A stretch of DNA of 64,000 bases, from NCBI GenBank assembly GCA_951406725.2, contig OX597825.1:65844001-65908000 (forward strand), given 5' to 3'. The notes under the pieces were generated by a model that was not told the DNA's origin, did not search any database, and worked only from the letters and a program-made list of their open reading frames with translations. Of this stretch, positions 7,385-15,299 are shown piece by piece. The DNA is from Octopus vulgaris (taxonomy: Eukaryota). Each line of letters opens with the position of its first letter. Positions within the stretch are counted from its first letter, which is position 1. The position numbers and the translations under genes were made by a program.

Positions 7385-9797
7385 CTCTCCACTCAGACCA
7401 CGACATGGTACTCTGCAATCTTAATTCCCGACGTATAAAAACCAAACCAGCCAATCCCACTCCATGGCACCCATTTGACAACATAAATTTCCACAAAGCG
7501 GACTGGGGAACAATCAGAAAGGATCTGTCTTCCATCGACTGGTCTTTTACTCTCAATTCCCCTCATATTGAGACCGCGTGGCAGCACTTTGAAACCATTG
7601 TCACCGACACATGCTCTAAACACGCTCCCAAGAAATCTACTAACACAAACAGAAACCGGCTCCCTAAAAAGAAAAAACACTCATCAGGCGCATCAAAAGA
7701 CTCAACAAAAAAATCAACCAATTAAAATATTCCCACATGCAACATCCACATTTAACAACAATGAAAAGACTAGAGCTGGAAAAACTTCATCTGCAGACTA
7801 ACATGAAAACCTCCATTGAAAATCAAAGAGCTGTGGAGGAACAATGGGTAATCAAAAACATCAAACAGAACCCAAAAGTGTTCTATTCTTATGCAAATAA
7901 GCATAGAACCACTGTCTCACCTATTGGGCCATTGATTGATGAAAACGGCATTCCCCAACACGATGCTAAAGAAATGGCAGAAATACTGCAGAAACAATAT
8001 TGCTCTGTCTTCAGTGTTCCCACTGATATTGATGTGAGGGAAACGAACGAAGCTGACTCCCAACACAAAATCGCAGACATAACCTTCACTGCCACCGACA
8101 TCGTAGCAGCAATAAATGAGGTCAAACATTACTCTGCTGTAGGCCCTGATAGATTTCCCGCCAGTCTCCTGAAGGAATGTAGATATCAACTTGCAGTCCC
8201 TCTGACCAACCTCTGGAGAAACTCGTTAGACGCAGGTTATATACCGAAAAAGTTTCTATCCCAGTCGGTCATCCCGGTTTTCAAACAGGGAAACAGATCC
8301 CTCACAGTCAACTATTGCCCAATCTCACTCACCTCCCACATCATTAAAGTGTTTGAAAGAGTGTTAAGATCAAGGATAGCTGACTTCCTGGAGACCCACA
8401 AACTCCTAAATTCAAATCAGCATGGCTTTCGCTGTGGCAGGGACTGTCTAACACAGCTCTTACACCACATTGAAGATGTACTCAAAGCCTTGGGAACAGG
8501 TTCGAACTCTGACGTTATATACCTTGACTTCAGTAAAGCGTTCGACAGGGTAGACCATAACATCCTACTCTCAAAATTGGCAAATGTTGGAATCCGTGGA
8601 AAAGTTCTACACTGGCTTCAGTATTTCCTAGCGAATAGAACACAACATGTTGTAGTTGATGGAGTCCACTCAAAATCAGCAAAAGTCACCAGCGGTGTTC
8701 CCCAGGGAACTGTTTTGGGTCCGCTACTCTTCATAATTTATGTAAACGACCTTTCCAGTGTCGTACATCACTGCAAAGTGAAAATATTCGCTGATGACAC
8801 TAAGCTCCAGCAAATCGTCAATGAAGAAGCAGACCGAACTCAACTCCAGTCTGACCTATATGCTGTGAGTCAATGGGCAGACAGAAACAAAATGCAACTG
8901 AATGAGGGAAAATTTGAGCTGATGCATTTTGGAAGAAATTCCTCACTAAAACAACCATACTCTCTTCCTTCAGGGGAACCGCTCACAGCTTCTAACAATA
9001 TCAGAGACCTGGGTGTAATTGTTGATGATGATCTCAGTTGGAGTGCACACATCAACAAGAAGGTCGATACAGCTCGTAGGATGAGTTCCTGGATCTTAAG
9101 AACTTTCCGGTCCAGAGAACAAGGTGTCATCATACCACTTTTTTCATCCTTTGTACGGCCACACCTTGAATACTGCTGCCCACTGTGGTCTCCTCACACA
9201 AGACAAAACATCTCCAGAATTGAGTCACCCCAGAGGGCTCTCACTAAACAAATTGAAGGCATGGCTGCTCTCGACTATTGGGATCGCCTTAAAGCCTTGA
9301 AACTTTACTCCCTTCAGCGTCGCCGTGAGCGGTACATCATTTGTACGATGTGGAAAATATACCGCCAACTTTGCCCAAACGACCTAAACATTAGCTTCAA
9401 GGTTCATCCGAGACTTGGACCACGGGCTATACGTCCCCTGCCAAATTCAAGATCACAACATACATGTACACTGCAACATAATTTCTTTTCCTCAACAGGC
9501 CCTGCCCTATTTAACATTGTCCCGAGGGAGTTCAAAGAGGAAAAGGATCCCATCAACTTCAAACAGAGTCTGGATAGATTCCTTCAAAGAATACCAGATA
9601 AGCCACCCATAATTGGATACAACTCACCCAACAAGAACTCACTACTTGAACAAACCTGGATACAACTCATCCAACAAGAACTCACTACTTGAACAAAACT
9701 TGACTTAAACAGGATTCGAATAATCCTATCAGGTGGTGCTATTAAGTTAGACATGGCCTGGACCAATCTCTGGTCGAAACATATCTAAGTTTATCTA

Positions 9798-13542: not shown

Positions 13543-13941
13543 CATACATATTTATATATATATATATATGTATATATAAATACATGTGCTTGTATACGCG
13601 CGCGCGTGTACTGTCCTACACATAGCAATGCACTGAGTTGTGTGTCTTCACTAGATGCACTGTTATGCCATCGAAAAGCTACACGAATTGAAGCATAAGA
13701 TCATAGCATGCTACGCACACGTATTAATGCGTATATAGACAGCATATTGTAACAAAACAATGGTAGTCAAAAGCACATAACTGCTTCAAATTACACACCT
13801 AAGCACGCTCACACACACACACATACACACATCTATATGAGTGTACATGCCTCGGCAATGCTGTCTAGCTCTTATGCTCATAATCATAATCATATATTTT
13901 ATGTACTTATCCACTTGCATGCATGTATGCGTATACATATA

Positions 13942-14406
13942 TATTTCTTTACTACCCACAAGGGGCTAAACGTAGAGGGGACAAACAAAGATAGACAAAG
14001 GGATTAAGTCGATTATATCGACCTCAGTACGCAACTGGTACTTTATCCCGAAAGGGATGAAAGGCAAAGTCGACCTCGGCGGAATTTGAACTCAGAACGT
14101 AACGACAGACGAAATACCTATTTCTTTAATACCCACAAGGGGCTAAACATAGAGGAGACAAACATGGGCAGACATAGGTATTAAGTCGATTATATCGACC
14201 CCAGTGCTTAACTGGTACTTAATTCATCGACCCCGAAAGGATGAAAGGCAAAGTCGACCTCGGCGGAATTTGAACTCACAACGTAACGGCAGCCGAAATA
14301 CCGCTAAGCATTTCGCCCGACGTGCTAACGATTCTGCTAGCTCGCCGCCTTCGAAATACCGCTAAGCGTTTCGCCCGGCGCGCTAACGTTTCTGCCAGCT
14401 CGCCGC
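13942..14406 (-). mobile_element. SINE family 2 with duplicated head and body
   Basis: Reverse complement of family 2, with two heads at about 14290-14406. Confidence 0.8.
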
Positions 14407-14432
14407 GTATACATATATATTTATGTACATGT

Positions 14433-14612
14433 GTGCGCGGTGTGTGTGCGCGCGGCGTGTGTGCGCGCGGCGTGTGTGCGCGCGGCGTTTGTGCGCGGCG
14501 TGTGTGCGCGCGGCGTGTGTGCGCGCGGCGTGTGTGCGCGCGGCGTGTGTGCGCGCGGCGTGTGTGCTCGCGGCGTGTGTGCACGCGGCGTGTGTGCACG
14601 CGGCGTGTGTGT
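14433..14612. repeat. 15-bp CpG-rich minisatellite (gcgcgcggcgtgtgt)n, about 11-12 units
   Basis: Direct reading of the tandem units. Confidence 0.9.
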
Positions 14613-14952
14613 GCATGTGCTTATGAGAGGGTGGGTGGGAGTACGTGTCCGTGCGTGCGTGCGTACGTGTGTATTCGGCATGTTCCCTTTGGAATTCATT
14701 CTCGTTGAGCAAACAAAACTCAGTGATATAATTGGTTCCTTTCTCACAATCATATTATTTTGTTGTAGAAAATTGAATAAGAATTTGACAATCGTGATTT
14801 TTTTTTTTTTTTTTGGTGCAGCAATCATGATGGTTTTTGGAAATCAACTTCTTTTCAAATTTCAGTGCATCAACAATATTTATATACCTTAGTATTTCAG
14901 GTTTTTATATATTAGCGCTTTAATTTAGTGTACATGTAAATTAATTATTTTT

Positions 14953-15222
14953 AAACAATTGCAGCGTGGAAGGTGTTTATAAGCCATTTAAGAAACACAC
15001 AAAACCGTTAAATTCACTTCAACACTTAAATTTAATTTGTCAAAATATTTTCGTGGCTTTGAGACCGTGACCTGTTCACTGACAAAATTCCGTGCTGCAC
15101 AGGTCGCGTTCTCAAAGCGACGAAAATATTTTGACAAATTAAATTTAAATATTGAAGTGAATCTAACGGTTTTTGTGTGTTTCTTAAATGGCTTATAAAC
15201 ACCTTCCACGCTGCAATTGTTT
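14953..15222. mobile_element. Fold-back element D (about 123 bp arms) carrying a variant hammerhead
   Basis: Arms 14953-15075 / 15098-15222 are near-perfect reverse complements. Confidence 0.8.
15036..15086 (-). ncRNA. Hammerhead-like motif with G3-C8 core variant
   Basis: tttgtca-GTGAACA-g-gtcac..gccac-GAAA-atat-TT-tgacaaa. Stem I is 7 bp. The opposite arm keeps a perfect stem II (gtcgc/gcgac). Confidence 0.6.
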
Positions 15223-15299
15223 GCGTTCCATCACACGAGCTCAGATCAGGTCACTTGCTATGCAAGTACATCTCCGTAATTATTTTTAAGGTTAATATT

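Follow-up and report, generated by a model that had tools for sequence, protein, structure and literature searches.

Head-to-head ends of a Penelope-like element

The window (the whole 64,000-nucleotide stretch of octopus DNA that was analysed) contains an insertion made of two 5'-truncated ends of a Penelope-like retroelement (PLE), joined head to head and flanked by a 13-bp direct repeat. Its parts are as follows.

14942..14954, no strand: left copy of the 13-bp AT-rich target-site duplication, repeated at 15277-15289, with a 2-base overlap with the element end (read from the sequence)
14953..15099, minus: 5'-truncated pseudo-LTR (pLTR) end of the element, with the short 3' end, no tail and the whole hammerhead motif (89.9% identical over 148 nt to the 3' pLTR of L126)
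15099..15279, plus: second pLTR end, head to head with the other and truncated inside the core, with stem II, GAAA and the 3' strand of stem I intact and the long 3' end (89.2% over 185 nt to L126)
15188..15280, plus: first 31 codons of the element's reverse transcriptase (RT)-endonuclease ORF (of 32 residues compared with the start of the L126 ORF, 24 are identical)
15223..15279, plus: optional 57-nt 'tail', on one arm only (two 3'-end classes occur among family copies)
15277..15289, no strand: right copy of the 13-bp target-site duplication, with a 3-base overlap with the tail end (read from the sequence)

The near-perfect inverted repeat spans 270 bp (14953-15222) and carries the hammerhead motif in one arm; the whole insertion extends to 15279 rather than to 15222. 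The reference L126 is an ORF-bearing copy whose subfamily is about 89% identical to the window arms, and we found no further ORF of this family elsewhere in the 64-kb window. The arrangement, inverted, 5'-truncated and bounded by a target duplication, would fit a by-product of target-primed insertion with a template switch.

Several other observations were made in and around the insertion. A 674-codon open frame with a Pfam RVT_1 match (window 7668-9689, plus strand) belongs to an unrelated retroelement. Upstream of the insertion lie a GC-rich tandem repeat with a 15-bp unit (window 14430-14610) and a short interspersed repeat that is partly duplicated (13937-14406). The 5' start of the short unit (window 15086-15099, minus) can pair with the region of the short 3' end (14958-14970), and this terminal pairing closes the short unit in a helix in the copy L010, but not in the longer L126 fold.

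The hammerhead motif in the minus-strand arm comprises the following parts.

15036..15086, minus: minimal type I hammerhead motif whose core is G3-C8; A9 is followed by an extra G, helix III is palindromic and position 17 is U; stem II is decayed in the window copy
15086-15080, minus: 5' strand of stem I, TTTGTCA (read from the sequence)
15079-15073, minus: core GTGAACA, read as G3-U4-G5-A6-A7-C8-A9 (the family state)
15072, minus: single extra G, between A9 and G10.1 (read from the sequence)
15071-15067 and 15057-15053, minus: stem II, GTCAC / GCCAC, with two mismatches (read from the sequence)
15052-15049, minus: GAAA, followed by the palindrome AATATT (read from the sequence)
15044-15043, minus: U16.1 and U17 (read from the sequence)
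15042-15036, minus: 3' strand of stem I, TGACAAA (read from the sequence)
15042..15043, minus: predicted cleavage site, 3' of U17 (UUU triplet), placed by hammerhead numbering and the consensus in the available part of PMC4209133, Fig. S3

A first-pass annotation had described a complete scaffold here (stem I, stem II, GAAA and the AATATT palindrome) around a GTGAACA core, and every feature that it named is present, including the two mismatches in stem II of this copy. The extra G after A9, the U17 cleavage site and the identity of the host element were absent from it. It suggested that the family could escape standard CUGANGA searches; the family core, GUGAACA, differs from the literal CUGANGA, and an Rfam scan of the window at the gathering threshold returned 0 matches. 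U4, G5, A6, A9, the G10.1-C11.1 pair, G12, A13, A14, the A15.1-U16.1 pair and H17 are all in place. We rejected an alternative core register, shifted by two bases, because it would need G4 and A5.

The claim that the inverted arm keeps an intact stem II (GTCGC/GCGAC) is correct but was overstated, as this plus-strand arm is without the 5' strand of stem I and the first four core bases: it starts at 15099 inside the core, with only ACA left, and is therefore not a second ribozyme. ViennaRNA folding gave a hammerhead-fold probability of about 4e-6 for the window copy, and a read-through transcript of the inverted repeat folds as one hairpin (-183 to -188 kcal/mol). On these folding predictions, the window copy most likely misfolds and is inert.

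The core across the genome and related families

We searched the 2.8-Gb genome that contains the window (G000) throughout with an 18-base pattern in which positions 3, 7 and 8 were left free. This pattern gave 8,751 matches, with G3-C8 in 7,924 and C3-G8 in 3, only one of the latter (L197) being a copy of the family; the reversed control patterns gave 3 (free), 0 (G3-C8) and 0 (C3-G8) matches in the same genome. Two independent decays at a rate of 1%, as estimated from one C3 and one G8 among the 100 matches listed, would be expected to yield about one C3-G8 match. A longer pattern produced 1,291 matches, with G3-C8 in 95 of 100 among the matches listed. These counts are of motifs and not of independent insertions: inverted pairs are counted twice, and about a dozen C1 loci represent a single insertion within a larger repeat. 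We observed that this larger repeat is multi-copy and partly palindromic, carrying one head-to-head insertion (L033, L041-L043, L049, L053-L056, L058-L062).

The same core was found beyond the assembly. In contigs of all 8 of 8 runs, which carry four organism labels, no other letter at position 3 or 8 rose above thresholds of 5% or 3%, the exception being one loose-end consensus (6 contigs, run X13) that read C3 with C8. Subfamilies differ in their loop II sequences and share the same core, with stem II mostly kept. As the first-pass annotation had suspected, GTGAACA is the state of the family and not decay, and a CTGAAGA consensus was not found. The match counts in G000 against the control, together with canonical hammerheads at the homologous place in related elements, establish that the motif is beyond chance.

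Two loci showed features of separate interest. At L064:3714-4956, seven copies of the short unit lie head to tail with (TA)n between them, an arrangement that is retrozyme-like and in which dimers could form. Cephalopods edit their RNA heavily from A to I. When L013:1474-1650 was compared with runs X14, X17, X18 and X20, about 14 positions carried A>G or T>C changes; their frequency reached 18% in three of the runs, which are only guessed to be RNA, and was near 0% in X20, as seen for six of these positions. Such changes resemble A-to-I editing of inverted-repeat hairpins on both strands, an interpretation that is unproven, as the run types are guessed and the DNA of the individuals is unmatched.

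We compared the 3:8 pair with that of related elements. The same genome harbours a sister family, with 55% amino-acid identity and an SH-aLRT of 100 in a quick tree of 28 rows with a midpoint root only. This family is younger, its copies being 99% alike with 1,312-codon open frames, and its hammerhead, at the same place, has C3-G8, C9, the same extra G and U17 (L148:6725-6770, L151:7935-7890). A scan requiring A9 had missed this motif, and a later scan left positions 3, 8 and 9 free. Applied to 42 metagenome loci of the clade, the latter gave five motifs, four C3-G8 and one U3-A8, all on the sense strand just behind the ORF and all Watson-Crick at 3:8; another 30 of the 42 loci had no readable motif, many missing the 3' flank. 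A relaxed scan added L157 (U3-A8) and L162 (C3-G8), with 26 of its 31 lines lying away from the position just behind the ORF and not counted. L153 and the L158 group, both C3-G8 with an imperfect GAAA, were added by eye, and L175 was excluded from the 3:8 count because it has two possible cores.

In total, 11 of the 11 readable families are Watson-Crick at 3:8 (8 C-G, 2 U-A and 1 G-C), and the swap to G3-C8 therefore looks compensatory, probably so on this comparison of sequences. The most economical reading is that C3-G8 is the ancestral state. Were two random hits to fall among 13 core positions, they would strike 3 and 8 and restore a pair with odds of about 1/78 x 1/3, or 1/234. The swap is one evolutionary event, whatever the copy number. 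Most relatives also have the extra G after position 9, and position 17 is U or A in 7 of the 8 relatives where it is readable. C9 occurs both in the sister family and in L154, where it accompanies U3-A8, which suggests that the core of this clade tolerates damage; the combination of C9 with C3-G8 in the sister family is a second core variant missed by standard descriptors.

The host retroelement

The host of the motif is a PLE with RT plus a GIY-YIG endonuclease at the C terminus, in a single ORF (L125, L126, L127), of which L125 retains 997 open codons. The Pfam match to GIY-YIG (PF01541) lies just above the cut-off; Pfam gave no RT match on a 530-aa piece, and RT was recognised from motifs and homolog names. 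In the linker before the endonuclease we found CX3CxxC followed by a C 7 residues on, which fits the CX2-5CxxC of Nematis/Neptune. The ORF was located by walking upstream through the microsatellite-rich pLTR. No ORF was found beside the first 64 loci, among them three pairs with a spacing of 2.7-6.4 kb; we rejected these pairs, since they are larger-repeat duplications or unrelated, and likewise L095 and L096.

Read 5' to 3', the longer copies contain the end of the ORF with RT, linker and GIY-YIG, then a microsatellite-rich region, an acceptor-like sequence and the hammerhead. In L126 the ORF starts inside the pLTR, such that its first 31 codons are the pLTR end plus the tail, and the hammerhead sits between a splice-acceptor-like site and this ORF start. 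The branch-point- and acceptor-like sequence just 5' of the hammerhead (L126:8800-8825) has 1,064 matches in G000 and ends in CAG or TAG depending on the subfamily, and many short copies begin exactly there. In the contigs, no donor or spliced form was found for this site, which resembles the intron end beside helix I of D. virilis Penelope. Two further ideas were dropped. One took 5' ends reading GAG/ATG (GAG|ATG) as spliced junctions; no spliced form appeared in the contigs, and a fold-back at the inversion junction explains such ends. The other held that a short upstream ORF constrains G3, and was abandoned because the length of this ORF varies among subfamilies (22, 19 or 7 codons).

After deduplication, 98 3' ends comprised 47 with the tail, 46 of the short class and 5 partial ones, and (TA)n follows 45 of the 98. 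The family has pLTRs that arise by partial tandem arrangement, copies inverted at the 5' end, and an optional tail that overlaps the start of the ORF; partial tandems, inverted 5' copies and an optional tail are described marks of PLEs (available text of PMC8557442). Published work links the tail to two sites in the 5' end of the ORF at which reverse transcription begins (PMC11167929, in its available part). At L065:1-760 and L101:1-690, family copies adjoin the ends of elements from other Penelope-like families, whose linker is long and Neptune-like.

Predicted activity, alternatives and known hammerheads

C3-G8 is a pair of the active core (PMC3884650, available text), in agreement with the first-pass statement that positions 3 and 8 pair in the active fold. 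That annotation also held that swapping the two bases rescues activity, and here the published rescue is only partial. The accessible parts of three papers report that G8C slows cleavage 10^5-fold, with partial recovery on adding C3G (PMC8495972), that a scan of all pairwise changes found C3G/G8C to be the one double mutant with rescue in the CUGA core region (PMC9901934), and that in the anole Penelope hammerhead C3G/G8C partly restores cleavage, with the element's protein required (PMC11167929). The covariation of 3:8 among the related families (C-G, U-A, G-C) and this double-mutant rescue both support the earlier proposal that the double change is compensatory. The minimal hammerheads of PLEs are weak, act as dimers and, even when the core is canonical, cleave slowly (PMC4209133, as far as available; also the review PMC6765202).

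We consider it probable that the motif is a minimal hammerhead of PLE pLTRs with a 3:8 pair reversed family-wide, likely to cleave the element's RNA slowly, and that the window copy is inactive as predicted. Two hammerheads in a tandem transcript would pair through the AAUAUU palindrome to form helix III; G3 would pair with C8, placing the 2'-OH of residue 8 as in canonical hammerheads; and cleavage would occur 3' of U17, at a point that precedes the start codon by about 55 nt. The element's own protein would probably assist this slow cleavage, by which long precursors would be cut into units. Position 17 may have been U or A before the swap, a permissive background; the swap would have been open to this lineage because U or A at 17 leaves no C17 to lock G3 in a Watson-Crick pair. 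Such a G3-C17 pair mirrors the C3-G17 trap described in the available text of PMC3884650, and one paper states, with its own data not shown, that the activity of G3-C8 is higher when position 17 is G than when it is C.

Folding of family copies is in part consistent with this proposal. For the majority-type copies L010 and L126, the fold of lowest predicted energy contains stems I and II (-13.8 and -14.7 kcal/mol); majority copies form both the 7-bp and the 5-bp stem, and stem II is broken in the window copy. The pattern that collected motifs for folding returned 83 rows, of which about 20 are spurious. ViennaRNA favours, by 1.3 kcal/mol, a G3-U17 wobble that extends stem I and that may act as a mild trap. 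Pairing of the palindrome can lengthen to 10 bp, with over-paired dimers predicted at 20 C, and co-folding gives strand-swapped or over-paired dimers; tandem arrays exist (L064). An extra G reportedly impaired a viroid hammerhead. The extra base of this family, G where the published consensus has H, would count against slow cleavage. The stronger proposition, that this is an active natural hammerhead with a reversed G3-C8 pair in a Penelope clade also exploring U3-A8 and C9, is one we advance tentatively: it might well be correct, and we stop short of calling it probable.

The fold could instead be retained because it serves the retroelement RNA structurally or in binding protein, with cleavage in vivo negligible or irrelevant. 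According to the available text of PMC11167929, cleavage of the anole element is dispensable for its insertion in vitro and no RNA-seq ends fall at the cleavage site, and Naiad elements thrive without canonical hammerheads (PMC8557442, within its available part); C9 in the sister family and L154, and the G3-U17 wobble, would also suit such a role. We nevertheless judge it unlikely, as the 3:8 pair is part of the core in its catalytic arrangement and does not appear in ground-state minimal structures (in what is available of PMC3884650), and as the family keeps G12, A13 and A14 together with the remaining 8 conserved core bases.

A dead hammerhead, whose two changes arose by chance in a single master element, spread by hitch-hiking and re-formed the pair by coincidence, is quite improbable. 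The swap is indeed a single event, 3 of the 9 outcomes of changes at both 3 and 8 are Watson-Crick, and the direct route crosses a single mutant reported inactive; against this, the remaining 11 positions of the core are intact, as are both stems, though these differ from the stems of the sister family, coincidental re-pairing has the long odds given above (about 1 in 234), the core is kept across subfamilies with changed loop II, and the U3-A8 relatives reveal 3:8 covariation within the clade. Finally, the window copy itself could be an active ribozyme, or the palindrome a MITE-like DNA element that looks like a hammerhead by chance. The copy does have all the core bases and stem I, and its 270-bp inverted repeat is near-perfect. 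We give this almost no credence, given the two mismatches in stem II, the minute predicted fold probability, the single hairpin predicted for read-through RNA, and arms that are two truncated retroelement ends with an ORF start and a tail; the link to an RT ORF contradicts the MITE reading. We thus favour a real, family-wide core variant of the known PLE minimal hammerhead, which is probably compensatory on the evidence of sequence comparison.

That a pair of the catalytic conformation was reversed while the remaining core stayed intact is evolutionary evidence for selection on the active fold, and bears on whether slow PLE hammerheads act in vivo, a question raised in the available text of PMC8557442 and PMC11167929. 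If G3-C8 is active, natural covariation of the active-site pair would be complete, catalysis would be under selection in Penelope elements, and CUGANGA searches would have missed whole high-copy ribozyme families, perhaps in elements now called hammerhead-free. The G3-C8 family and its C3-G8 sister in the same genome form a ready pair for a direct test. Because about 8,000 motifs in G000 escape both the literal core and Rfam, we advise broader descriptors, permitting any Watson-Crick 3:8 pair and a variable position 9.

In the literature searched, we came across neither a G3-C8 core of natural origin nor a PLE hammerhead from octopus; several likely sources lie outside that literature, and novelty is provisional. 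The closest known system is that of the metazoan PLE minimal type I hammerheads (Cervera and de la Pena 2014, PMC4209133), which, as described in the available text, share the place in the pLTR, the extra base between 9 and 10.1, G10.1-C11.1, a palindromic helix III, the NUH site, no evident loop contacts, and thousands of truncated single or inverted copies. They differ in the core pair and in the extra base, G here against their consensus H; of the 56 representatives in Fig. S3 of that source, 53 have C3-G8, two U3-A8, one U3-G8 and none G3. Natural U3-A8 hammerheads are known (Perreault et al. 2011, PMC3088659; Schistosoma Cercyon elements, PMC4209133; both in their available parts) and likewise covary at 3:8. 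U3-A8 takes two transitions with a possible wobble step, whereas G3-C8 takes two transversions that reverse the pair. The engineered C3G/G8C hammerheads, one of them from a Poseidon-clade PLE, carry the identical core change and are partly active (PMC11167929, PMC9901934 and PMC8495972, as far as available); these are laboratory mutants, whereas the octopus motif is natural, has U17 and is known here from its sequence.

The host element resembles the EN+ PLEs of the Nematis and Neptune clades (Craig et al. 2021, PMC8557442, available text) in its RT, CX2-5CxxC linker, C-terminal GIY-YIG, pLTR, inverted 5' copies, optional tail and many insertions beside (TA)n. Its tail is 57 nt against 30-40 in those elements, and its linker spacing is Nematis-like in a comparison by eye, the RT tree containing no named reference elements. 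Non-LTR retrozymes (bioRxiv 10.64898/2026.07.22.740005, in its available part) are likewise short hammerhead units derived from PLE pLTRs, sometimes in tandem, as in L064; unlike their tandem arrays, which give abundant circular RNA, the locus in the window consists of two truncated ends in inverted orientation and has one complete motif.
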